From contig MHLM01000016.1 of the NCBI GenBank assembly GCA_001821395.1, positions 1-42,604 of the forward strand: DNA of 42,604 nt, written 5' to 3'. Every line of letters starts with the position of its first letter. Positions within the stretch are counted from its first letter, which is position 1. Under the pieces are notes generated by a model that saw nothing but the letters and a program-made list of their open reading frames with translations, made no database searches and was not told the origin of the DNA. Shown here piece after piece: positions 5,321-33,509 of this stretch. Position numbers and translations under genes: made by a program. The DNA is from Candidatus Lloydbacteria bacterium RIFCSPHIGHO2_02_FULL_50_18. Lineage in GTDB: Bacteria > Patescibacteriota > Minisyncoccia > Phycocordibacterales > UBA6899.

Positions 5321-5384
5321 CGCATTCCCCTCACTAAAAATTCTGAGCACATCCTACCATGTGCTAACAAATTGTGAAGTAAGT

Positions 5385-5607
5385 AAAAGATATTAAACCC
5401 CAGGGCAAGCCCTAGACTCGCAATGAGCTCGCAAGGCCTCACGCGAGTCCGCGGCAGAGCCGTGGGGTATTGAACTTTTTTAGCTCTCCTCGGCACCACG
5501 GTGAGTACTTCCATTTTTCTAAAGCAGAATACTGCTAAGAAAAATTGGTCGCTCGGAGATGAAAAAGAAGACCTTTTCCATTTCGCTCGCTCTACGTCGG
5601 CAATAAA
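5385..5607 (+). repeat. Repeat element A, copy 1. It is a structured unit of about 150 bp, here carrying a nested 59-bp insertion of element B at 5494-5552.
   Basis: Near-identical to the copies at 10292-10457 and 28201-28365. Hairpins ccagggcaagccctgg, gactcgc...gcgagtc and ccgcggcagagccgcgg; flanking direct repeat ggtattaaacc; hairpin gaaatgaaaaag...tttttcatttc. Confidence 0.85.
5494..5552 (+). mobile_element. Element B copy 1, a roughly 59-bp hairpin-bearing miniature element nested inside element A at ctcctcgg^ttcgga.
   Basis: caccacggtgagtacttccatttttctaa...ctaagaaaaattggtcgc matches the B copies at 20885-20942 and 23017-23074. Element A copies 2 and 3 lack it. Confidence 0.75.
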
Positions 5608-10169: not shown

Positions 10170-10291
10170 GTTATTGCTCCTTGAAAAGAACGCACCTACC
10201 TTCTTTTATGCTACGCGACCCTCTGCGACTGAATAGATTGACATATTTCCGATCTATTTTTTAATACACAAGCGATGACTACTTTTTTGAT

Positions 10292-10457
10292 AAAAGGTAT
10301 TAAACCCCAGGGCAAGCCCTGGACTCGCAATGAGCTCGCAAAGCCTCGCGCGAGTCCGCGGCAGAGCCGCTGGGTATTAAACCTTTTTTAGCTCTCCTCG
10401 GTTCGGAAATGAAAAAGAAGAATTTTTCATTTCGCTCACTCTACGTCGGCAATAAAG
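10292..10457 (+). repeat. Repeat element A, copy 2, intact. It lies between the two secreted paralogs.
   Basis: Near-identical to 5385-5607 (minus the B insert) and to 28201-28365. Confidence 0.85.
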
Positions 10458-11640: not shown

Positions 11641-12315
11641 TCAATCGACGGCTTTCTCGACCTGTTCTTTCTCATAGTCCAGCCATTCTTCAACAAATTT
11701 GGCGAAGTCTCCTGTGTTTTCAAAATAATCAGGAAACTCGCTCGGTGAAAGTATCGCCGACTCTTCCCTTTTGCCAACGGCATAATCCTCGTAGCTCGAA
11801 TATCGATACCCCTCGAGATACTTCTTCGCCGCAGACAGATTCTTGATTCCTCCCTCCTTCCACTCGGGCTCGATCAGTTTCACGGGGTTCAAGTGAATAT
11901 ACGCATATAGGTATTTCAAATACTCGTCACTGTCGACATGCTCCGCCTTAAATCTACCTTGAAATAGCGGACCAACCCTCTTATTCTTTAAATTGAAATA
12001 CTTCGAGTAGCTCGTAGTGAGTTTTTCCATGAACGTACTAACTCCCCCTTCAGATATCTCCTTAACAAGTAGGTGAAAATGATTATTCATAAGTACATAC
12101 GCACCAATCGCAACAATTTTGTCATCTACCTCTATTTTATCCAAAGGCAGCCTTTGGATAAGTTTATAAACTACTGGCCGAGTGCTATTTGAGATGTGTA
12201 ACATCCGGTGGAAACGTACTCGATCACTCCTATCCATGAAGATATCTCTTTTCTCAACTCCGCGATTGTAAACGTGGTAGTACTCCCCTTCTGCAAAAGT
12301 AATCTTTCTATTCAT
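11641..12315 (-). CDS. HUH Y1 transposase, IS200-like / REP-associated tyrosine transposase (RAYT-1), 224 aa.
   Basis: YHVYNRG...YVLMNNHFHLLV (HUH motif)...GPLFQGRF.AEHV...YLKYLYAYIHLNPVK (catalytic Tyr region). A paralog is at 32268..32930. The cognate palindrome ccaaaggctgcctttgg lies upstream at 12331-12347 and 12397-12413, and inside the CDS at 12141-12157. Confidence 0.85.
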   Translation of the reverse strand: MNRKITFAEGEYYHVYNRGVEKRDIFMDRSDRVRFHRMLHISNSTRPVVYKLIQRLPLDKIEVDDKIVAIGAYVLMNNHFHLLVKEISEGGVSTFMEKLTTSYSKYFNLKNKRVGPLFQGRFKAEHVDSDEYLKYLYAYIHLNPVKLIEPEWKEGGIKNLSAAKKYLEGYRYSSYEDYAVGKREESAILSPSEFPDYFENTGDFAKFVEEWLDYEKEQVEKAVD

Positions 12316-12330
12316 TCAACTAATTTTACT

Positions 12331-12413
12331 CCAAAGGCTGCCTTTGGACAATTGGTCGGGGTGTTAATTCAATCACGTCTGCTCCAATCAACATATCCAA
12401 AGGCTGCCTTTGG
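12331..12413. repeat. Two REP-1 palindromes (ccaaaggctgcctttgg) at 12331-12347 and 12397-12413, upstream of RAYT-1.
   Basis: Perfect 7-bp stem palindrome. The two copies are 66 bp apart. Confidence 0.8.
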
Positions 12414-12486
12414 ATGGGGTGGGGGGGTATTCAGGATATAACAAAATCCCCTCTTTCGAGAGGAGTTTTGTTTTCCAAAAAATTAC

Positions 12487-12530
12487 GGCAAACACAAAAG
12501 CCCCTTTCGGGGCTTTTGTGTTTGCCAAGG
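12487..12530 (-). terminator. Strong terminator for the surface-protein gene. Perfect 18-bp stem ggcaaacacaaaagcccc / ggggcttttgtgtttgcc with a tttc loop.
   Basis: Hairpin followed by a T-run in the minus sense, about 50 nt after the stop at 12579. Confidence 0.7.
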
Positions 12531-12578
12531 TAGGTCCTTGGGAGTTTAGAACTCCAACTGAGTTCAGACTGGGACGAA

Positions 12579-15947: not shown

Positions 15948-16503
15948 ATAAGTCTGCTTGTTAATGTGCTGTAAATAATACAGCTACGAACCTACTAATA
16001 ACTTTCTTATAATCACGGTAATACGTATGCGATCGATATTCCGCCCTACTCGCCGAATCCCGCAAGAGAGGCAACGGGCAAAGCAAGAAATATTTTTCAC
16101 ATACGACGGGCACGACCAACTGCTATCGTATGTACCCTTCTATTCGGAATGCCTTGTGCACTCCTCCTTCGAGTCTACATGCGACGCATGAATTCGTACC
16201 GAACTAGAAATCGTTCATCGAGAACGAATAACAAGATCCGTTACTTCCCTCCGCAACTCCGAACATAACATTGAGAGTCACTTCGGAAATCACACATCCG
16301 CTATTTTGTTTTCAATGAGCTATCCATTTCGGCTTTCCTCCATACGTGTCCACTTCATGCACCCCGGAGCGTCCGGACATAAAGCGAGCGCATCGCATTG
16401 CATTCTGTACAAACATACAAAGACAGAATCGCTCTGCTCTCGAAAGCACAATATAATTATAGTATTTCTCCCCTCTTCGCGCCAAAAAAATGGTGCAAAT
16501 ATT

Positions 16504-16512
16504 GTGGATAAC
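16504..16512. promoter_or_regulatory. Perfect DnaA-box 9-mer TGTGGATAA (TTATCCACA).
   Basis: Exact consensus 9-mer in the 1.1-kb non-coding region. A second one is at 18219-18227. Confidence 0.3.
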
Positions 16513-16689
16513 ATTTTAAACAGCCACGTGCTGTTTTTTGCCCCACAAACGTTGAGAATACCTGCGTGCACCATCCCTGGTACACGCAGGGGCATAGTAC
16601 ACGCCCCCACCCATGCCAGTCAAACGATTATACGGCCTGTTTGTGATGTATTTAAGACATGGAAATAGAGCTATTGGACATTGGACACC

Positions 16690-17000
16690 AGCAGACAGCC
16701 AACTTCTCTAGGGTCGAACCTCCCAAAGCTGAGGAACGACCTTGGGCTGTCAAAGACACTGGTAAAGGTGTCTTTGAAAGTTGTCTTTGAGGCGGTTGTT
16801 TTAGGGGTGTAGGAAGGTGTGCACAACGTCGATGGGAATAGGCGGATGCTTAAAAGTTGGGGAGAGATGGGAGACAGACAACTTCTCTGAGGTTGGACCC
16901 TAAAAAATGAACGGCTTCATCAAGGTTGAACCTTTCAAAGCCAGACAACTTCTCCAAGGTCACACCTTCCAGAGCTAAGGAATGACCTTAGTCTGATATT
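16690..17000. repeat. Cluster of REP-like hairpins in a 1.1-kb intergenic region. Units at 16708-16746 and 16936-16973 match the consensus, and half-units lie between them, each preceded by acaacttctc.
   Basis: Consensus ccaagg-NNNN-acc-tYYcaaagcYRagg-N-NNNN-accttRg. Other units: 17462-17499, 17559-17596, 18426-18463, 20992-21029, 33433-33470, and a split unit at 22997-23016 plus 23075-23091. Confidence 0.8.
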
Positions 17001-17076
17001 GGTGACTAACCTTCGCGAAGTGAATATATGCTCCCCGAAGCAAAGACGAAGACGTCTTGCAACGGGGCAGGCCAGC

Positions 17077-18045
17077 TTATCCAATCAATGAGTATGTTGA
17101 CCACCTACGTTCGCCCCTTTTGACCAACGTGCCTTCTATCACCATGGAGAGAAGTTCACGCTGAATGGTTTTTTCTGAAATGCCGGGGATGCTCTTTGCG
17201 ATATCGCCGACCGTGATGGCGGGCTTCTGCTTGATGAGCGCGAGGATGATCTTGCGTCGGTCATCACGGGTCACATCAGGGCGAGAGCGGGCGATGACAT
17301 CGCGGTCGGAGATGACCAGGCGAGGCTGCATGTAGGAGCGGGCGGGTTGCGGAGTTGGGGTATTGGGTGCTCTTGGTGAGACTAAGGGGGGTTGTTGCAT
17401 CATCAAGGAATCACCTTTGCGCTGCGTTGTCGCTGGTGTGAATTGCTGAATCGTTGTGGGTGCTGCAACCAAGGAGACACCTCTCAAAGCCGAGGAGTCA
17501 CCTTGGTTTTGCTGCGGGGTTGGAGTGAACGTGCGCACGAGAGGAATAGCGGGAGTATCCAAGGAGACACCTTCCAAAGCTAAGGAGTCACCTTGGGTAT
17601 CTTTCGGTACCTCAAAAAAGCGTTCACTCAGCATCGTCTTGCTTCGCTCTTGCATGCGATTCCATTCCATCTCGACGCCATCCTTCAGTGCACAATATTC
17701 TTTCCGCAACATCGAGGCGTTCATCTCGCTCACCAAGTGTGTTGATGTTGCGACATCAAGAAACGAGATCAGCTTCTCGATCTTCTTTAGGACGACACGG
17801 AGCATGCTCATCTTCTCGCTCGACGAGATCGTCGCTGCGACCGTGATGTCGGAAAGCACTTCGACTCCGACCTCCCTTGTTTTCCACTTCATCGGCTCAC
17901 GATCGGACAGAATGTCCGTAACGAGGTAAAGCGCCGTTGTGAGCTTCTCCGCTTTGCGCACAATATACCCATAGCCGTGAAAGGCTTTGGGTGTTTGCCC
18001 TTCGTGGGTGTTCTTATTTTGCTGACTGTCCTTTTGATGTTCCAT
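17077..18045 (-). CDS. Hypothetical protein of 322 aa with a C-terminal winged-HTH domain. The central low-complexity linker contains two in-frame REP-like hairpins.
   Basis: C-terminus DIAKSIPGISEKTIQRELLSMVIEGTLVKRGERRWSTYSL is wHTH-like. The REP units at 17462-17499 and 17559-17596 encode the duplicated peptide QGDS.AL.GVSL. The gene is divergent from ftsK. Confidence 0.55.
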   Translation of the reverse strand: MEHQKDSQQNKNTHEGQTPKAFHGYGYIVRKAEKLTTALYLVTDILSDREPMKWKTREVGVEVLSDITVAATISSSEKMSMLRVVLKKIEKLISFLDVATSTHLVSEMNASMLRKEYCALKDGVEMEWNRMQERSKTMLSERFFEVPKDTQGDSLALEGVSLDTPAIPLVRTFTPTPQQNQGDSSALRGVSLVAAPTTIQQFTPATTQRKGDSLMMQQPPLVSPRAPNTPTPQPARSYMQPRLVISDRDVIARSRPDVTRDDRRKIILALIKQKPAITVGDIAKSIPGISEKTIQRELLSMVIEGTLVKRGERRWSTYSLIG

Positions 18046-18236
18046 ATAGTGTCTTTAAATTGTCCTTATATGATGTCACACAATTTATTAAAAGTCAAAT
18101 GCTGTCTATTAACCTGTCCTTGAATGCGTCTGGAGCAATAATTTATGTCCATCATACTCACCGACGGCAGAATGTCCAATAGTGTCCGATTGAGGGCGGA
18201 ATGGGGCAAAAAAACACCTGTGGATAACCTACGCTC

Positions 18237-18328
18237 GGGATTGCTTATTGAGGGCACGCATAAAAGTCTGCTGACTTTTTGCTCAGACTCCCGCCGCCGC
18301 GGTCCGTAGCCCCTCAATAAGCAATCCC
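18237..18328. promoter_or_regulatory. Long hairpin: perfect 18-bp inverted repeat gggattgcttattgaggg / ccctcaataagcaatccc around a 56-nt loop that contains a smaller hairpin. It lies in the divergent promoter region upstream of ftsK, next to a DnaA box at 18219-18227.
   Basis: Inverted repeat read directly from the sequence. Confidence 0.45.
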
Positions 18329-18505
18329 TCGCTCCGCAGAAAGTATTTGGAGTTTCATGAGAATCATTTAATGCCGTGGCACCAAAACCGGAGGAATTGC
18401 GGCAAATATAAAATGGACAACTTCTCCAAGGTCGGGTCTATCAAAGCCTAGGCCCGACCTTAGTCCATTTTTTTGTGATAAAATCAGAGCAAATTAAATA
18501 CCGCT

Positions 18506-20827
18506 ATGGCCAAAAAACAAAAAAAACGAAACGAGAAGAATATGGAGAGGAAGGAGCGCAGAAGCAACTACGATGCGTCTTCAAAAAAGATCGGCTTCTG
18601 GGGAGGGCTCCGTGATGAGACGCGGAATTCCATTGTTGGAATACTTATGTTCATCGTCGCGGTCATTCTCCTCTTCTCCGCAATGGGTAACGGAGGGATG
18701 CTGGGCGGGAATGTCTACGATGGGATCCATTTTCTCTTCGGCCTCGGATACTACGTCGTACCGTTCCTCTTCGTCTTGCTCGGTATCAACTTCTTTCGCG
18801 CCCGCGAGCGCAGCTTCGCGACGCCGGCACTCGTCGCTGGTCCGTTCTTCATATTGTCCGCGCTCGGACTGCTTGCACAGATGAGCGTCGCCTATGGCAC
18901 GGAAGGGTTTGGAGGATTCGTCGGCTACTACATCATGATGCCACTCGTCGCACTCTTCGCATCGACCTTGACCGCGATCATGCTCGTTACCGTGCTCCTT
19001 ATCGCTGTGCTCATTCTCTTTGATATGCCACTCCACCTTGGATTCATGCTTTCATTCTGGAGAATGCTACGACCGACGAAACGTGACGAGCTTGTGGGCG
19101 ATGAGATCGATACGAGCATCGACGAGGAAGAAGGAACGACCGAGGTCATCTCACTCAAAAATCCTCCCATCGTCGCGGAGGCTCCCGATCCGGAAGAAGA
19201 GGTCATGTCGACGCCAAAAGCATCGCTCTTTGCGAAGTCGAATAAAACAGAAGCAAGAGTGAAGGCTGATGAGGTCCCGTTCCGATTCAATTCGACACTG
19301 CACTCTGAATACACCCCTCCCCCGCTTGCACTCCTCTCTCACGACAAAGGAAAGCCGGGATTTGGCGACATCAAGGCGAATGCAAACATCATCAAGCGCT
19401 CGTTCCAAAACTTTGGCATTCACGTCGAGATGGATGAAGTATCCGTCGGTCCATCGATCACCCGCTATGCACTCAAACCTGCTGAGGGAGTGCGCCTTTC
19501 GAAGATCACCACGCTGCAGCACGACCTCGAGCTTGCACTTGCGGCAGCGCCGATCCGCATCGAAGCGCCAATACCCGGGAAATCACTCGTTGGCATCGAA
19601 ATGCCGAATACCACAAAGTCGACCGTCGGACTGGGGACACTCCTCGCTGAAGCGGAATGGGCGACGAATCCAAACCCGCTCTATGTTCCCCTCGGAAAGG
19701 GAATCTCGGGACTCGCGCAGTTCATGAATATCGCAAAGATGCCACATGTGATGGTTGCCGGAGCGACCGGCTCAGGAAAGTCGGTGACGATGCACACGAT
19801 CATTACCTCTCTATTATATAGAAACTCACCGGAACAGCTCCGCTTCATCATGGTGGACCCAAAGCGCGTCGAGCTCACACTCTATAATGGTATCCCGCAT
19901 CTCCTCACTCCCGTCGTGACCGAAGCCAAGAAGGCGATCCTCACGCTCAAATGGGCAACAAAAGAAATGGACCGACGCTATGACGTGCTTCAAGAAAATA
20001 AAGTGCGCGACGTCGCCTCGTACCACAAGACCATTCTTCAGCCTGCGTTAGAAAAATATGAAAAGCAGAAGGCAGAAGGCAGGCTTGGTGACGGCGAGGA
20101 GCCGGAGCTACCCGAGCTCATGCCGTACATCGTCATCATCATTGATGAATTGGCTGACCTCATGTCGGCATATCCCCGCGAGCTTGAGTCTGCTATCGTC
20201 CGTCTCGCACAAATGAGTCGAGCGGTCGGTATCCACCTCATGATCGCGACGCAGCGGCCTTCCGTGAATGTCATTACGGGACTCATCAAGGCGAATATCC
20301 CCGCACGTATCGCGCTTCAGGTCGCCTCCCAGATCGACTCGCGCACGATCCTGGATACTTCGGGTGCTGAAAATCTTCTGGGTGCGGGCGACATGCTGTA
20401 TCTTTCTGCGGAAATGCCGAAGCCTATCCGCCTTCAGTCTGCATTCATCTCGGAGGCAGAGGTGAAGAATGTGGTGAAATTCCTTAAAGACCACTACAAT
20501 GGAACGCTCGGTGACGAGATCAATGTCACGAAGGATACGGAGAACAGGAATGCGTTCTTTGGCGGCATCCCGGAAGATGCGATATCGGGTGACAATGATG
20601 ATGAGGAGGACGACAAATACGATGCGGCCAAGGAGCTCGTGATGAAGGAGGGCAAAGCATCGACGTCATATCTTCAGCGACGGCTCGGTCTCGGATACGC
20701 GCGTGCGGCACGCATCATGGATATCCTCGAAGAAAAGGGTGTGATCGGACCCGGCGAAGGAGCCAAACCGCGAACGGTACTACAGAGGGATGATAAGAGC
20801 GAGGGATTTGGAAGAGAAGAGGAGTAA
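18506..20827 (+). CDS. ftsK: DNA translocase FtsK/SpoIIIE of 773 aa. N-terminal TM segments, motor domain, C-terminal gamma wHTH.
   Basis: Walker A VAGATGSGKSV. Conserved blocks IIIDELADLM and MIATQRPSVNVITGLIKANIPARIALQVAS. Gamma domain ASTSYLQRRLGLGYARAARIMDILEEKGVIGP. The many overlapping antisense ORFs in the track are spurious. Confidence 0.95.
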   Translation: MAKKQKKRNEKNMERKERRSNYDASSKKIGFWGGLRDETRNSIVGILMFIVAVILLFSAMGNGGMLGGNVYDGIHFLFGLGYYVVPFLFVLLGINFFRARERSFATPALVAGPFFILSALGLLAQMSVAYGTEGFGGFVGYYIMMPLVALFASTLTAIMLVTVLLIAVLILFDMPLHLGFMLSFWRMLRPTKRDELVGDEIDTSIDEEEGTTEVISLKNPPIVAEAPDPEEEVMSTPKASLFAKSNKTEARVKADEVPFRFNSTLHSEYTPPPLALLSHDKGKPGFGDIKANANIIKRSFQNFGIHVEMDEVSVGPSITRYALKPAEGVRLSKITTLQHDLELALAAAPIRIEAPIPGKSLVGIEMPNTTKSTVGLGTLLAEAEWATNPNPLYVPLGKGISGLAQFMNIAKMPHVMVAGATGSGKSVTMHTIITSLLYRNSPEQLRFIMVDPKRVELTLYNGIPHLLTPVVTEAKKAILTLKWATKEMDRRYDVLQENKVRDVASYHKTILQPALEKYEKQKAEGRLGDGEEPELPELMPYIVIIIDELADLMSAYPRELESAIVRLAQMSRAVGIHLMIATQRPSVNVITGLIKANIPARIALQVASQIDSRTILDTSGAENLLGAGDMLYLSAEMPKPIRLQSAFISEAEVKNVVKFLKDHYNGTLGDEINVTKDTENRNAFFGGIPEDAISGDNDDEEDDKYDAAKELVMKEGKASTSYLQRRLGLGYARAARIMDILEEKGVIGPGEGAKPRTVLQRDDKSEGFGREEE

Positions 20828-20884
20828 CGCTCAAATAATACCCTTACGGGGCACGCCTTCAATTTTTCCAGCGAAAAATTGTTG

Positions 20885-20942
20885 CACCACAGAGAGTACT
20901 TCATTTTTCTAAGGCGGGGTACCGTTAAGAAAAATTGGTCGC
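20885..20942 (+). mobile_element. Element B copy 2, directly followed by element C.
   Basis: caccacagagagtacttcatttttctaaggcggggtaccgttaagaaaaattggtcgc. Confidence 0.7.
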
Positions 20943-20956
20943 AGGGGAACGACCTT

Positions 20957-21068
20957 ATACCATCGCTCGTTAACCATTTCTGAATAAGTTTCCAAGGAGA
21001 GACCTTTCAAAGCCAAGGACTCACCTTTGAAACTTACAGAAACGGAAAAGATTAATTGGAGATGGTAT
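20957..21068 (+). mobile_element. Element C copy 1, a roughly 112-bp MITE-like unit with about 11-bp terminal inverted repeats (ataccatcgctc...gagatggtat) that carries an internal REP-like hairpin.
   Basis: About 98% identical to the copy at 33398-33509. The TIRs are reverse-complementary. Confidence 0.8.
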
Positions 21069-21087
21069 TAGTCTGGCATAAGAAAAA

Positions 21088-21112
21088 ACCGCGCCATCAT
21101 TCGATGGGGCGG
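21088..21112 (-). terminator. Terminator (ccgcgccatc-attcg-atggggcgg plus a T-run in the minus sense) downstream of the small ORF 21120..21332.
   Basis: Hairpin plus U-run immediately after the stop codon. Confidence 0.55.
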
Positions 21113-21119
21113 TTTTTGA

Positions 21120-21332
21120 TCAGCGCCGACGACGGGCGACCATTCTTGACTTCAGCTGATTTCTGCGCTTTTGCGCCATACGCCGAGCGACCGCATTTCC
21201 TCTCCCCTTTTCGGGAGGGCTTTGGTTCGGGGTGATGCTGTTCGCCAAATAGATCAGCGAGTGAGAGTGTGATTCACCAGCACTCACAAAGCATGCGGCG
21301 GCAATGGCAGAAAGAAATGACCAACGGGACAT
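21120..21332 (-). CDS. Small hypothetical protein of about 70 aa. N-terminal signal-peptide-like segment and a strongly basic C-terminus (...VARRRR).
   Basis: ORF with a dedicated terminator directly after its stop. No homology recognised. Confidence 0.35.
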   Translation of the reverse strand: MSRWSFLSAIAAACFVSAGESHSHSLIYLANSITPNQSPPEKGRGNAVARRMAQKRRNQLKSRMVARRRR

Positions 21333-21397
21333 AGCATTCTCCTCATGAATTTCTTCAACGACCATACCAACAGAAAATCATTGCGTCAATCAAGCTA

Positions 21398-21438
21398 TCC
21401 TAGGGGTACCCTAAAATTCCTAGGGACCCCTAGGAATT
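21398..21438. promoter_or_regulatory. Tandem near-palindromic 20-bp repeats (tcctaggggtaccctaaaatt / cctagggacccctaggaatt) upstream of the small-ORF/recA unit. Candidate operator. They are followed by a direct repeat tttccgatttt x2 (21446-21468) and a TATATA element just before the ATG at 21493.
   Basis: Read from the sequence. Each half is a near-palindrome around GTAC or A. Confidence 0.4.
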
Positions 21439-22972: not shown

Positions 22973-23016
22973 CGGGAAGGCGGCGAACAACTTCTTCAAG
23001 GTCTTACCTTTCAATG

Positions 23017-23074
23017 CACCACAGGGAGTACTTCATTTTTCTAAGACGGAGTACCGTTAAGAAAAATTGGTCGC
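23017..23074 (+). mobile_element. Element B copy 3, inserted into the loop of a REP-like hairpin (5' half 22997-23016, 3' half 23075-23091).
   Basis: The flanks cttcaaggtcttacctttcaatg and cagggagagaccttag pair as REP stem halves (aaggtct / agacctt). Confidence 0.7.
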
Positions 23075-23114
23075 CAGGGAGAGACCTTAGTCCGCCAAAA
23101 AAGAAAAAGAAAAT

Positions 23115-27389: not shown

Positions 27390-28202
27390 ATGTTAAAAGG
27401 ACACGAATCAAGACTCTCAGACAAGCAGCGATACCTTCAGGTGGCGCTTAATGGTACGCGTGCAGATGCACGGGCGATCCTCTCCGTCTTACCATCTTCC
27501 GAACGCATCATCATTGAAGCGGGTACACCCCTCATCAAACGTTATGGTATCGGCATCATCAGGGAGATCTACGACTGGGCTCCGCGGGGGACATTCGGAG
27601 CAGCGGCAGACCGCCGCGCACTAGACGCAAAAATAGCACAATTTGGTCTGATCGGTGCTGTGACACGATCATTTACAGAAGCACAGCGAACACTCCGGGT
27701 GGCGGGAGTGGAGCAGGCTTCAAATAGGCCGTACATTGTTGCCGATATGAAAACGATCGACCGCGGTGAAACAGAGGTGGCGATGTGCGCCTCGGCTGGT
27801 GCAAGTGCAGTGATCGCGATGGGTTCTGCTCCCATCGAAACGCTGAATACCTTCATCGCGTCCTGCGAGAAATACGGCCTCGATGCAATGATTGATATGA
27901 TGAATGTTGAATTCCCACTTGCCGTACTGCGCTCACTCAAAAAACCTCCGCGAGTCATCGTGCTCCACCGCGGTGTCGACGAAGAGCGTGACAACGGACA
28001 AAAAATGCTTCCGCTCCACGAGATCCGTCGCCTCAAGGGGCAATACGACGTCCTCATTGCCGTCGCGGGAGGCGACACAGCGCGGGAGGTACAGAGTGCG
28101 GCATTCAACGATGCGGACATCGTCGTGATATGGAAATCGGTATATGAACAAAACGGCGAGACGCTCGAGCTCATTGAGGGATTTCTCAAAACGATCAAAT
28201 AA
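27390..28202 (+). CDS. OMP-decarboxylase-fold protein of the 3-hexulose-6-phosphate synthase (HxlA) / KGPDC-like family.
   Basis: LQVALN...IEAGTPLIKRYG...IVADMKTIDRGETEVAMCASAGASAVIAMG...VIVLHRGVDEE...AVAGGDT aligns to HPS blocks (LQVAID, ELGTPLIK, FADMKTMD, AGGV). The usual Asp in LQVAID is Asn here. Confidence 0.6.
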   Translation: MLKGHESRLSDKQRYLQVALNGTRADARAILSVLPSSERIIIEAGTPLIKRYGIGIIREIYDWAPRGTFGAAADRRALDAKIAQFGLIGAVTRSFTEAQRTLRVAGVEQASNRPYIVADMKTIDRGETEVAMCASAGASAVIAMGSAPIETLNTFIASCEKYGLDAMIDMMNVEFPLAVLRSLKKPPRVIVLHRGVDEERDNGQKMLPLHEIRRLKGQYDVLIAVAGGDTAREVQSAAFNDADIVVIWKSVYEQNGETLELIEGFLKTIK

Positions 28203-28365
28203 AAGGTATTAAACCCCAGGGCAAGCCCTGGACTCGCGATGAGCCCGCAAAGCCTCGCACGAGTCCGCGGCAGAGCCGCGGGGTATTAAACCTTTTTTAG
28301 CTCTCCTTGGCTCGGAAATGAAAAAGAAGACTTTTTCATTTCACTCGCTCTACGTCGGCAATAAT
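28201..28365 (+). repeat. Repeat element A, copy 3. It sits between the HPS-like stop codon and a strong 12-bp-stem terminator at 28372-28401.
   Basis: Near-identical to the other two A copies. The terminator gaacagcgtatc-atgctc-gatacgctgttc plus a T-run follows. Confidence 0.85.
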
Positions 28366-31441: not shown

Positions 31442-32260
31442 CTAGAGACAGAAGATGCGTTTTGCATTCTCCAACAATGTTTCTGTCACGATCTCGGAAT
31501 CTATTCCTTTTATTTCTGCGACGGCACGCACTGTCTCAAGAACATAGGCCGGTTCATTACGTTTACCTCGATAGGGCGCTGGGGCAACATAAGGGGCATC
31601 CGTCTCAACGTGCAGTGAGCCAAGTGGAATATACTTGAGCACTTCGTCGTAATCGTGCGAAAAGGTCAGTACGCCGGTGAATGACATTGTAAAACCCATA
31701 TCAAGAAACTGCTTTGCGATGATAGTATCCCCAACGAAGAAATGCACATTACCCTTCACTCTCCCTCCGTAACGCTCCTGCCCGTTCTTCAGGATATGCA
31801 GAATGTCTTCATAAGCGTCCATGCTCCCCTTCTCCGGTCTGCCGTGGATCATGAGCGGCTTATCGACCGCAGCAGCAAGATCCATTTGCCTCGTGAATAG
31901 TTCCTGTTGGCGATCGGCCTCCGCATCCATGTTCTCAATCCTCCCTCTCGCGCGATCATCTTCCAATCGAAAATAGTCGATTCCACATTCTCCAATTCCG
32001 ACCACGCGGGGATGTTTTGCCATTTTGCAATATGCGGCTTCATCGTATGTCTCAAGCGGATCATCAGTAGGGTGAACGCCTATCGTCGCCCAAATGTCCG
32101 AATGTTCTTCTGCGAGGGCTATCGCACGGAGCGACATCGCCTTGTCCGTCCCCACTACGATCGATGCGACGTGTGCAGCACGCATGCGCAAAAGCACCAG
32201 GGGTAGATCCTCTTCGAAACGCTTGTCATTTAAATGCGAGTGAATGTCTATATATTTCAT
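31442..32260 (-). CDS. tatD: TatD-family metal-dependent deoxyribonuclease/hydrolase.
   Basis: MKYIDIHSHL N-terminus, GIGECGIDY and later His/Asp motifs. The start is placed at the MM pair 32258-32263. The longer listed ORF would read through the REP/RAYT stop region. Confidence 0.85.
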   Translation of the reverse strand: MKYIDIHSHLNDKRFEEDLPLVLLRMRAAHVASIVVGTDKAMSLRAIALAEEHSDIWATIGVHPTDDPLETYDEAAYCKMAKHPRVVGIGECGIDYFRLEDDRARGRIENMDAEADRQQELFTRQMDLAAAVDKPLMIHGRPEKGSMDAYEDILHILKNGQERYGGRVKGNVHFFVGDTIIAKQFLDMGFTMSFTGVLTFSHDYDEVLKYIPLGSLHVETDAPYVAPAPYRGKRNEPAYVLETVRAVAEIKGIDSEIVTETLLENAKRIFCL

Positions 32261-32267
32261 CATATCG

Positions 32268-32930
32268 TCACTCCAAGGTGGAACCTTGGAAATTAAGCCA
32301 GTCGCTGATATATTCGTCAAATTGTTCTGCATGCTCAAAGTATTCGGGAAAATCTTTCACCGAAAGAATGGGTGACTCGATCCGTTGTCTACCCTGCCAG
32401 TCTTGCATACTCGAATAAACATACGCGCTCAAATACTTTTTTGCAGCTGCAGGATCCTTGATTCCCTCTTTTCTCCACGTTGGATCGATGAGTTTGACCG
32501 GATTAAGATGAATGTATGCAAAAAGATACTTCAGGTATTCATCTCGCGACACATACTCCGCCTTGAATGTTCCCTGGAAGAGCGGCCCGACACGTTGGTA
32601 TTTTTTATTAAAGTACATTGTGTATCCCGTCGTCAATTTCCTCATAAACTCAGTGATGCCTGTATCATTTGTTGCACGGACAAGCAGATGGAAATGATTA
32701 GGCATCAATACATATGCACCCATGGCACACTGTGCGTTGCCGCGACCCTTGGGATCAAGCACGTCCCCAGCAAGCAGCTTGTAGACGGTCGGACTATCAC
32801 CATTCGCGTAAAACAACATCCGCTGAAAGCGCACATGATCAGGGTCATCCATGAATACCTGCCGCTTCTCCACTCCACGATTGTAGACATGGTAATACTC
32901 GCCCTCAGAAAAAGTGATATGCCGATTCAT
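32268..32930 (-). CDS. HUH Y1 transposase, IS200-like/RAYT (RAYT-2), 220 aa. Paralog of 11641..12315.
   Basis: YHVYNRGVEKR...YVLMPNHFHLLV...GPLFQGTFKAEYV...YLKYLFAYIHLNPVK. Its last codons lie inside one copy of the palindrome ctccaaggtggaaccttgg (32271-32289). An identical copy lies upstream at 32954-32974. Confidence 0.85.
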   Translation of the reverse strand: MNRHITFSEGEYYHVYNRGVEKRQVFMDDPDHVRFQRMLFYANGDSPTVYKLLAGDVLDPKGRGNAQCAMGAYVLMPNHFHLLVRATNDTGITEFMRKLTTGYTMYFNKKYQRVGPLFQGTFKAEYVSRDEYLKYLFAYIHLNPVKLIDPTWRKEGIKDPAAAKKYLSAYVYSSMQDWQGRQRIESPILSVKDFPEYFEHAEQFDEYISDWLNFQGSTLE

Positions 32931-32953
32931 TGTGGCAATTATACCTCCCCCTA

Positions 32954-32974
32954 CTCCAAGGTGGAACCTTGGAG
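32954..32974. repeat. REP-2 palindrome ctccaaggtggaaccttggag, about 25 bp upstream of the RAYT-2 ATG. A second copy at 32271-32289 overlaps the RAYT-2 stop.
   Basis: 8-bp stem with a 5-nt loop, two identical copies in the same orientation flanking the gene. Confidence 0.8.
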
Positions 32975-33127
32975 TGGATTTTCATGAGCACCCCCCCCCG
33001 AATGGTGCCCTGACTCAAGACATAAGTATTTCGGCCAAAATACCGGAAATGATATCTCGGTCATTAGCCTGCCATGCTTTTCAAAACAAAAAACCGCAAA
33101 AATGCGGTTGTACGGCGTAACCCATGC

Positions 33128-33295
33128 TCAATTTTTCTTTTTGTCCGGAGCTGTGCCGGACTTGTCTTTTTTCTTATGACCATCGGGCTTCTTTTTAGGA
33201 ATGTCTTTCTTCGGCGGTACCGGCTTTGGGTCGCAGCGGCAAAAATCGAAGCAGATCTCGCACACTCCACACGGATGATATTGTTTAACCATCAT
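33128..33295 (-). CDS. Small Cys-rich protein with a Lys-rich tail, about 55 aa (MMVKQYHPCGVCEICFDFCRCD...KKKDK...).
   Basis: GAGGGGGA Shine-Dalgarno before ATGATG. Terminator aaccgcaaaaatgcggtt (33092-33109) directly after the stop. Confidence 0.45.
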   Translation of the reverse strand: MMVKQYHPCGVCEICFDFCRCDPKPVPPKKDIPKKKPDGHKKKDKSGTAPDKKKN

Positions 33296-33397
33296 TCCCC
33301 CTCTCTGCCACATAGGCAAACACGAAACTTATATGAGCGTAGCAAAACAAAAACCACCCCGCAAGGATCCGCAGGGGGGGGTCGTTCAGCAGATATA

Positions 33398-33509
33398 ATA
33401 CCATCTCTCGTTAACCATTTCCGAATAAGTTTCCAAGGAGAGACCTTTCAAAGCCAAGGACTCACCTTTGAAACTTACAGAAACGGAAAAGATTAATTGG
33501 AGATGGTAT
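33398..33509 (+). mobile_element. Element C copy 2, about 98% identical to 20957-21068.
   Basis: ataccatctctcgttaaccatttccgaataagtttccaaggagagacctttcaaagccaaggactcacctttgaaacttacagaaacggaaaagattaattggagatggtat. Confidence 0.8.

Follow-up and report, generated by a model that had tools for sequence, protein, structure and literature searches.

To our knowledge, systems that pair repetitive extragenic palindromic (REP) sequences, or the long hairpins made of two of them (REPINs), with REP-associated tyrosine transposases (RAYTs) have been studied almost only in Proteobacteria. In PMC3337134, a REPIN is defined as two inverted REPs forming one long hairpin. According to Di Nocera 2013 (PMC3733652), one end of a REP carries an unpaired tetranucleotide, GTAG or CGTC; Quentin 2018 describes a tetranucleotide guide on the 5' side of the hairpin foot. 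RAYTs are inherited vertically and do not multiply in the manner of an insertion sequence (IS) (Bertels 2017, PMC5581495). In this study, we analysed a family of dispersed hairpins in a 42,604-nt stretch of contig MHLM01000016.1, hereafter the window, which comes from a Candidatus Lloydbacteria metagenome-assembled genome (MAG) of the Rifle aquifer series (Parcubacteria; Patescibacteria, or Candidate Phyla Radiation, CPR). The host is an ultra-small groundwater bacterium, and CPR genomes are highly streamlined, measuring about 1 Mb. Our results indicate that the hairpins are probably REP-type doublet repeats served by a RAYT-like Y1/HUH protein, for which the window holds a candidate gene.

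Palindromes within genes have also been described. Di Nocera et al. 2013 (PMC3733652) reported REPs within uvrA, uvrB and recB and within genes for tRNA synthetases, and Rickettsia palindromic elements (RPEs) lie in frame in genes (summarised in PMC10969869).

The hairpin family: copies, fold and covariation

The window contains seven complete 38-nt hairpins, five of them within 16690-18463 and every one on the + strand, together with two decayed units. An earlier note, made from the sequence alone, had counted at least eight units in that region. A relaxed pattern matched the window six times, against 0.00 matches expected from 100 shuffles. A covariance model of the kind that the earlier note had proposed (R1) was trained on the seven copies and run over the whole window without filters, where it found exactly seven full units (58.6-63.9 bits, E <= 2e-16) and nothing else above 26 bits. 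With a 38-nt core in seven copies per 42.6 kb, the family has the size and repetition of REPs, that is, of repeated palindromes of 20-40 nt.

From its foot, the fold reads CCAAGG, three to five variable pairs, CCTY, an 8-nt loop YCAAAGCY, RAGG, the variable pairs again and CCTTRG. The conserved loop of the earlier note is thus correct in its 8-nt centre, whereas the longer stretch quoted there as loop hides a 4-bp stem, CCTY/RAGG. Its variable pairs tcgg/ccga (18426), tca/tga (16954) and gac/gtc (17469, 17559) are found as described; gag/ctc belongs to the copies at 20992 and 33433, outside the region to which it had been assigned. The conserved 5' extension, (A)CAACTTCT, is present at 16699, 16878, 16945 and 18417.

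The units take three forms. Type A has an 8-nt 5' bulge, CAACTTCT, and beyond it a further variable outer stem of 5-7 bp; type B is a plain extended hairpin; and in type C, a form conserved in three species, the hairpin is the tip of a 112-nt palindrome. Since three copies have this outer variable stem, CAACTTCT can be recognised as an asymmetric 5' bulge. Both type B units of the window lie in the linker of an open reading frame (ORF) of 322 codons, here ORF322. The units are the following.

16708-16745, 16954-16991, 17469-17506, 17559-17596, 18426-18463, 20992-21029 and 33433-33470, + strand: the seven 38-nt cores found by R1
16695-16750, + strand: type A unit 1; outer stem ACAGC/GCTGT (16695-16699/16746-16750), bulge CAACTTCT (16700-16707), core 16708-16745; 58.6 bits
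16879-16900, + strand: decayed 5' part of a type A unit, CAACTTCT and then CTGAGGTTGGACCC, with the intact 3' half missing
16921-16942, + strand: truncated half unit CAAGGTTGAACCTT-TCAAAGCC, directly past the loop of which type A unit 2 starts
16942-16995, + strand: type A unit 2; outer stem CAGA/TCTG, bulge CAACTTCT (16946-16953), core 16954-16991; 60.2 bits
17467-17508, + strand: type B unit (AACCAAGG...CCTTGGTT), antisense and in frame in the ORF322 linker, read as QGDSSALRGVSL; 62.1 bits
17557-17598, + strand: type B unit, antisense and in frame in the ORF322 linker, read as QGDSLALEGVSL; 63.5 bits
18410-18471, + strand: type A unit 3; outer stem AAAATGGA/TCCATTTT, bulge CAACTTCT (18418-18425), core 18426-18463, followed by a T-run; 59.6 bits
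20957-21068, + strand: type C palindromic element of 112 nt with the ends ATACCATCNCTCGTTAA ... TTAATTGGAGATGGTAT and the family hairpin (20992-21029) as its tip; 63.9 bits
33398-33509, + strand: second 112-nt copy of the type C element (98% identical), core 33433-33470

Type A unit 2 looks like a nested insertion within the loop of the older, truncated half unit. Both arms of the hairpin, CCAAGG-N5-CCTY and RAGG-N5'-CCTTRG, are REP-like, N5' being approximately the reverse complement of N5. The arm palindrome is CCAAGG-N5-CCTT, so that the inner arms are shorter than in single REPs (CCAAGG-N5-CCTTGG). Because each arm is a short palindrome, the 38-nt unit resembles a REPIN, with two REP units joined in inverted orientation. 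Judged by its sequence, the inner variable stem appears to be the N5 loops of the two inverted units paired with each other.

The family extends well beyond the window. We scanned three public collections (genomes, metagenomes and viral contigs) with one pattern that left the variable stem positions free. In the genome collection the pattern matched 36 loci, of which R1 confirmed 34, all in CPR MAGs labelled mostly Lloydbacteria and in some cases Saccharibacteria or Minisyncoccia; a single MAG, GFS_1518, had matches on ten contigs. The other two, L003 (Puniceicoccaceae) and L037 (Marsarchaeota), gave no covariance-model match and are probably chance matches of the pattern. The motif was present at 76 loci of the metagenome collection, while the identical pattern had 0 matches in viral contigs. 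Deduplication left 98 distinct copies and 88 distinct 42-mers, and the genome-level data consist of fragments. The earlier note had considered that the family might be confined to this locus as a tandem duplication. The 34 genome and 76 metagenome loci argue that it is not a local duplication; the copies are scattered on many contigs, and Tandem Repeats Finder detected no array over the units.

In the window copies alone, 4 of the 15 pairs have changed on both sides. Across the 88 distinct copies, standard pairs make up 87% of cells and 10 of the 15 pairs have changed on both sides (163 cells); none of 500 shuffles reached the observed score or paired-cell fraction. Sliding the partner columns by one to three positions lowered pairing from 87% to 19-56%. 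Each of the three central variable pairs occurs as three or four pair types (for example GC 28, AU 24, UA 24, CG 7). Non-canonical positions are conserved as well, namely C·A at the second pair and A·A beside the inner helix, and the loop ends are T..C or C..T, almost never T..T or C..C. A similar pattern was found for the 7-bp outer stem (consensus AGACGGM/KCCGTCT) of 66 type A copies, in which 410 of 462 cells are paired against 297 ± 7 with re-dealt partners; CAACTTCT is exact in 39 of these 66 units. As a test of the doublet model, we compared the states of the outer (A-T/G-C) and inner (T-A/C-G) stems, which were weakly correlated (odds ratio 7, p = 0.037, 84 copies). Altogether, these results substantiate the covarying stems described in the earlier note.

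Copies inside genes, signs of possible mobility and of constraint

Housekeeping genes contain units of type B, and some of type A, inserted in frame and in either orientation. They can be read in three frames, as KETPSKAKESP, as LQGLTFQSQG and, antisense, as QGDSLALEGVSL. Genes at the fetched loci were called crudely, as longest ORFs, and some of the type A units placed in an ORF reflect over-extended start codons. By these crude calls, 17 of 31 units of type B or other form lie inside ORFs, a few of which are short and possibly spurious. Type A units are mostly intergenic and occupy every gene context: they lie between tandem genes in 28 cases, between divergent genes in 10 and between convergent genes in 8, and those between co-directional genes are antisense in 20 cases and sense in 8, again by crude calls. 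The host genes identified are listed below.

GatB, locus L014 and relatives: insert confirmed against solved structures, an enlarged GatB loop
UvrA, locus L016: 17 extra residues exactly at the unit in comparison with solved UvrA structures
MurD, locus L005: gene named by eye from its translation
RsmI, locus L036: gene named by eye from its translation
RsmE, locus L006: gene named by eye from its translation
TatD, locus L112: precomputed Pfam matches and alignment; insert in a hypervariable loop missing from other orthologues
SufC, locus L071: gene named by eye from its translation
Cysteine-desulfurase-like protein, locus L101: gene named by eye from its translation
17077-18045 of the window, - strand: ORF322, 322 aa, with a conserved N-terminal domain, a variable linker holding two units and a C-terminal winged-helix-like domain

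ORF322 matches no Pfam family. Its orthologues (40-50% identical) have the N- and C-terminal domains in common, and their linkers are unrelated and free of units; in ORF322 itself the linker is hypervariable and of low complexity. In every species examined (L009, L013/L040, L035, L038), the gene is flanked by three to seven antisense palindromic units. The surroundings of ORF322 are possibly a hot spot for the units, or else functionally linked to them.

Several observations resemble the traces of mobile DNA. At L071, L065, L101 and L013, the loops of other palindromes have units nested within them. Downstream of ftsK, the spacer is occupied in the window by a type C element and in L040 by a different REP doublet; in L039 it has no such element. 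Moreover, 18 of 20 adjacent pairs of neighbouring copies, from 11 loci of which some are orthologous to the window, are co-oriented, which is the outcome expected of a strand-specific mechanism acting on single-stranded DNA (ssDNA). A target-site duplication was not visible at any copy. When hairpin strand was compared with replication direction through local GC skew, 36 loci were negative and 25 positive (p = 0.31), a weak comparison since fragments of 4-14 kb mostly reflect gene orientation.

In gatB the insert is orthologous across five lineages, which are 70-93% identical in its flanks. Its 36 core columns show no variation at all, while 81 of the 202 columns in the flanks, or 40%, are variable (Fisher p = 1.2e-7). 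The outer stem of this insert shows a compensatory change, TTC..GAA to TGC..GCA. As read from the alignment, such invariance would reflect a nucleotide-level constraint beyond the protein code, or homogenisation. Together with the compensatory changes across the family, this finding is in line with the earlier proposal that selection acts on the hairpin itself.

The non-coding DNA on both sides of ORF322 has features of its own. The stretch at about 16163-16514 is some 73% identical to the orthologous spacers of other Lloydbacteria (L009, L013, L035 and L038), where the neighbouring protein is 40-50% identical, and includes a perfect DnaA-box 9-mer at 16503-16511. It could be an undescribed RNA gene, or a regulatory or origin-like region. 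On the other side, the spacer between ORF322 and ftsK (18046-18505) contains an 18-nt perfect inverted repeat (18237-18254/18311-18328) and a perfect DnaA-box 9-mer (18219-18227), and a promoter-like site on the + strand (18022-18050) lies upstream of the type A hairpin and T-run at 18426. These features could delimit a non-coding RNA of about 400 nt on the + strand. We also considered a replication origin beside ORF322 as the cause of the cluster and rejected it, as the window has only two perfect DnaA-box 9-mers and one-mismatch boxes are not enriched (12 against 7.75 expected).

Two Y1/HUH genes and their flanking hairpins

The gene calls of the source contig include a weak Y1_Tnp match 4.5 kb from the hairpins, and the window holds two such genes. 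These genes, the two copies inside ORF322 and the REP-like palindromic arms go beyond what the earlier note had described. The genes and their flanking palindromes are as follows.

11641-12315, - strand: gene A, putative RAYT-like Y1/HUH gene, 224 aa, 58% identical to gene B
32268-32930, - strand: gene B, putative RAYT-like Y1/HUH gene, 220 aa, candidate cognate enzyme of the hairpin family
32270-32290, + strand: single REP hairpin CTCCAAGG-TGGAA-CCTTGGA(G), overlapping the 3' end and stop codon of gene B
32953-32973, + strand: single REP hairpin identical to the copy at 32270, about 20 nt upstream of the gene B start codon
12139-12159 (in gene A), 12329-12349 and 12395-12415 (upstream of it), no strand assigned: three palindromes TCCAAAGGC(W)GCCTTTGGA, the REP type of gene A
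12523-12543, + strand: single REP hairpin GCCAAGG-TAGGT-CCTTGGG, 208 nt upstream of gene A

The hairpins beside gene B read CTCCAAGGT...ACCTTGGAG, which is the stem base of the dispersed family. The 9-mer CTCCAAGGT occurs five times in the window, against 0.21 expected, and is confined to the family units and the gene B flanks. Single REPs of the window are found beside the two Y1 genes only. This arrangement is not peculiar to one genome: TCCAAGG-N5-CCTTGGA flanks gene B and its four orthologues at the same two places, with the loops TTCCA/TGGAA or TCTCA/TGAGA. Upstream of the orthologues in L121 and L122 stands a full inverted doublet, for example TTCCAAGGTGAGACCTTGGA-ATTG-TCCAAGGTCTCACCTTGGAG, and the L121 doublet scores 38.8 bits with R1, a model made from window hairpins. 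The window unit TTCCAAGG-AGAGA-CCTT-TCAAAGC-CAAGG-ACTCA-CCTTTGAA follows the plan of the Y1-adjacent doublets, with a centre 2 nt shorter. The single upstream hairpin of L039, CTCCAAGGTCTCACCTT, is identical in sequence to the 5' arm found in one of the most frequent type A arm variants.

Each of the two paralogous Y1 genes comes with a REP type of its own. In L040, a sister genome, the gene A orthologue is flanked by the REP GTACGAGG-TCCGA-CCTCGTAC, and dispersed doublets of the form ATACAAGGTCGGACCTT...AAGGTCCGACCTTGTAT match this REP. A more distant Y1 homologue (42% identical) in L060 is flanked by direct repeats AAAAAGTTATCCACAGGTGCAGAGAACCGTTCTCTGTAA at about 2050-2090 and 2790-2830, in which a DnaA-box-like 9-mer is joined to a hairpin; a 14-mer of these repeats, CACCTGTGGATAAC, recurs in the window upstream of ORF322, at 18215-18228.

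The proteins match Pfam Y1_Tnp at 30.9 bits, over a cut-off of 23. More than 7,900 relatives were found at E < 1e-5, the top matches being 53-77% identical; few of these have named sources, and those are mostly Parcubacteria or other CPR. The residues H79, H81 and Y139 are invariant across 30 homologues, and the segment MPNHFHLL aligns with the HUH motif MPDHVHLL of ISDra2 TnpA. By sequence, the proteins appear to be a distinct Y1 subfamily. Since sequence searches against the PDB gave nothing significant, the fold itself had to be compared. For an AlphaFold model of the gene B protein (pLDDT 87.8), the best PDB match found by Foldseek was 4er8_A, the E. coli RAYT with its REP hairpin (E 6.5e-6, TM 0.67), and the transposases of IS608, ISDra2 and IS200 were weaker fold matches, at about 1e-3. 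The gene B protein is therefore predicted to have a RAYT-like Y1/HUH fold with the HUH motif and a putative catalytic tyrosine.

Both genes keep their neighbourhoods. The order MetRS-Y1-TatD around gene B is retained in L039, L120 and L122, and in L121 the Y1 and TatD genes adjoin at the contig end; gene A retains its position after a large PG_binding surface-protein gene in L040/L041. These kept neighbourhoods suggest RAYT-like rather than insertion-sequence behaviour. Elements of the IS200/IS605 group are multicopy and have distinct left- and right-end hairpins around tnpA, with or without tnpB, whereas the loci described here are syntenic and the flank hairpins of the window are identical on both sides. 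Beside the Y1 orthologues the flank hairpins are direct or inverted. The window has no near-identical Y1 duplicates, only the two paralogues, and the gene calls for the stretches retrieved around gene A and the Y1 orthologues include no tnpB. Thus, as far as gene order and sequence tell, the Y1 genes appear to behave as vertically inherited RAYTs and not as insertion sequences. As for the TatD gene next to gene B, its ORF call (31442-32338, - strand) was extended upstream across the REP (ISKVPPWS), and orthologues start with MKYIDIH.

How such a protein might serve the hairpins can be modelled on E. coli TnpA-REP and on IS200/IS605 TnpA (IS608/ISDra2). When DNA becomes single-stranded, for example at a replication fork, a unit would fold into its hairpin. 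A dimer of the vertically inherited Y1/HUH protein of gene B would recognise the stem base CTCCAAGGT/ACCTTGGAG, and then cut and rejoin the single strand through its HUH motif and catalytic tyrosine, by way of a phosphotyrosine link. The unit would be copied or moved into other single-stranded sites, often the loops of hairpins, leaving neighbouring copies on one strand. Binding, cleavage and mobilisation by the Y1 protein, as well as the strand and timing of these steps, are what we infer from the analogy with these enzymes.

Competing explanations and comparison with known systems

Some of our results weigh against the view that the hairpins are REP doublets served by a RAYT-like protein. 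The flank REPs of the window share only the stem base with the dispersed units, and their N5 (TTCCA/TGGAA) differs from that of those units. The sole NCBIfam match of the Y1 protein, REP_Tyr_transpos (NF047646, an equivalog model), scores 43.8 bits and so falls under its cut-off of 80. A PDB search with the single Y1 sequence found no significant match, 4er8 included, and a profile reached only E = 0.2, to ISDra2. The units lack the unpaired GTAG/CGTC tag of REPs, and the type A units of the sister genome have a different spacer. Furthermore, the scoring of R1 favours paired sequence, while the primary pattern scan demanded no pairing at the N positions, and conservation of the loop outside the window is partly imposed, because the scans required CARAGC. 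No pairs of empty and filled sites were found between near-identical strains. Finally, the invariance of the gatB insert and the hairpin clusters kept around ORF322 exceed what a purely selfish element would need, and point to a host-level role or to homogenisation.

A further reading takes the hairpin as more than a selfish repeat. The hairpin may be a host-selected, nucleotide-level signal of CPR bacteria, read by domesticated Y1/HUH proteins for ssDNA transactions even within essential genes such as gatB. Such transactions could include replication-fork processing, recombination, repair or the handling of imported DNA, the Y1 genes being among the best conserved in these reduced genomes. 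We consider this possible, albeit unlikely.

A rather improbable alternative dispenses with the Y1 protein, or takes it as fully domesticated, and regards the hairpin as a host DNA cis-element under purifying selection, bound by a nucleoid or repair protein or by ORF322, or serving as an uptake or recombination signal. The gatB insert, with its invariant core and compensatory outer stem, fits this explanation. So do the hairpin clusters around ORF322 orthologues in at least four other species at 40-50% protein identity, the core common to MAGs labelled Lloydbacteria, Saccharibacteria and Minisyncoccia, and the synteny and high conservation of the Y1 genes. However, nesting, insertion into ORFs at unrelated sites and the turnover in orthologous spacers are typical of mobile DNA, and a double-stranded site recognised by its sequence would conserve both half-sites instead of covarying.

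The earlier note had left the choice between a REP and a structured RNA motif. The first is favoured by the Y1 genes, the flank hairpins and the predicted 4er8-like fold. As an RNA, the hairpin would be a protein-binding element, a processing site or a terminator, with YCAAAGCY and CAACTTCT as recognition elements. Many RNA motifs combine strong covariation with conserved unpaired nucleotides, as this family does; the copy at 18426 with its T-run is terminator-like, a T-run of at least four follows 15 of the 66 type A units, and the crude gene calls give the antisense bias of type A units between co-directional genes noted above. Against this, the units occur in both orientations within unrelated ORFs, where the RNA would carry either CAAAGC or GCUUUG. 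They lie between divergent (10 type A units) and convergent (8) genes as well, and all seven window copies are on the + strand irrespective of the direction of neighbouring genes. G-T wobbles and C-A mismatches are spread such that neither strand is clearly the better folder. With Rfam 15 at gathering thresholds, the whole window matched large-subunit rRNA alone, and a search of 16300-21300 at E <= 10 returned nothing credible. Intrinsic termination was likewise rejected as a general explanation, given that one of seven window units was flagged as terminator-like (type A unit 3), that T-runs follow only the 15 type A units just mentioned, and that units lie between divergent genes too. An RNA motif is therefore slightly less probable still than the cis-element. 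Very unlikely is a miniature inverted-repeat transposable element (MITE) moved by an unrelated transposase, such as a DDE enzyme encoded elsewhere, with the Y1 genes nearby by coincidence: type C, which three species have conserved, is indeed 112 nt long and bounded by terminal inverted repeats, and the genome has several other small repeat families, yet no copy shows a target-site duplication, no DDE transposase was noticed among the selected ORFs scanned in the window, and the family shares its stem base specifically with the hairpins flanking the Y1 gene in five species, with CTCCAAGGT nowhere else in the window.

Several features of the window stand apart from the hairpin family. In a second repeat family, about 166 nt long and present in three copies (5383-5606, 10290-10455 and 28199-28364), three GC-rich hairpins are combined with a T-run and with direct repeats GGTATTAAACC on the flanks; the copy at 5383 is interrupted by 58 nt related to a 75-nt repeat found at 20883-20957 and 23015-23089. 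The two 75-nt copies are 91% identical and end in a GGTCGC...CGACC hairpin, and the first abuts the 112-nt type C element. The 166-nt family may represent small RNA genes or another miniature mobile element; like the other neighbouring repeats and the conserved spacer on the ORF322 side, it has no match in Rfam. A palindromic doublet of a different sequence type, ATCCTAGGGGTACCCTAAAATTCCTAGGGACCCCTAGGAA, at 21397-21436 points to yet another REP-like family. At its start the window cuts through a bacterial 23S rRNA gene, of which it holds the 5' half (1-1559, - strand; Rfam LSU_rRNA_bacteria, 1151 bits), and it has no tRNA or tmRNA genes. Two short ORFs, 16659-16790 and 33074-33496 (both + strand), are probably spurious read-throughs of hairpin units. 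The family thus matters for annotation, as several ORF calls run through hairpins, and such repeats likely break the assemblies of Parcubacteria MAGs.

Among described systems, the closest to this locus is that of REPs and REPINs with RAYTs, as in E. coli (TnpA-REP with REP and bacterial interspersed mosaic elements) and Pseudomonas fluorescens (REPINs). Common to both are short imperfect palindromes in many dispersed copies, two inverted REPs folding into one long hairpin, stems with compensatory changes, and a syntenic, vertically inherited Y1/HUH gene flanked by REPs, whose predicted fold is nearest to 4er8. The host phylum is different, being Patescibacteria/CPR instead of Proteobacteria. 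Among the papers that we found to use the terms RAYT or REPIN, none refers to the Candidate Phyla Radiation. A broader search, whose 20 top-ranked papers were dominated by pairs of CPR synonyms, returned no pairing of a repeat term with a CPR term among those papers, and the articles classifying RAYTs (Quentin 2018; Bertels 2017, PMC5581495) do not mention Parcubacteria or Patescibacteria. Hence, what we describe is probably a known kind of mobile DNA in a phylum for which we found no description, and not a new category. In genomes as streamlined as those of CPR bacteria, repeats that persist within genes bear on the distinction between tolerated parasites and useful partners. Moreover, a large conserved Y1 family, the more than 7,900 relatives counted above, gains a testable substrate, and the covariance model offers an entry point for biochemistry.

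The copies within genes recall intragenic REPs and RPEs, which are likewise in-frame palindromes in housekeeping genes, uvrA included, adding short peptide segments to variable loops. Here, however, the units measure 42-75 nt, against about 150 bp for RPE-1, and have three readable frames; the gatB insert is conserved at every nucleotide, and the host is a CPR bacterium, neither Rickettsia nor Opitutus. With the TnpA proteins of the IS200/IS605 group (IS608, ISDra2), the Y1 proteins share the Y1/HUH fold, by prediction, an aligned HUH motif and, by analogy, the recognition of DNA hairpins, and the strand-specific action on ssDNA expected of such enzymes fits the co-oriented neighbouring copies. 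Unlike those elements, the Y1 genes keep their neighbourhoods, are not multicopy and have neither distinct left and right ends nor a tnpB partner, and their fold is less similar to IS200/IS605 TnpA than to RAYT.

REPs as a class are predominantly extragenic and lie mostly downstream of genes. Compared with REPs and REPINs proper, many copies lie within genes, the inner arms of the doublet are shortened around a conserved 8-nt spacer, and the place of the unpaired tag is taken by the 8-nt bulge CAACTTCT and an outer stem. In other genomes, many type A outer stems do contain a CCGTC string, although in a paired state, and the window copies lack it. The absence of the tag and a score below the curated RAYT threshold lead us to regard this system as a variant, although it agrees with REPIN-RAYT systems on most other points. 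Its distinctive traits are a three-tier hairpin with a conserved bulge, two Y1 paralogues with their own REP types and a letter-perfect repeat within an essential gene.

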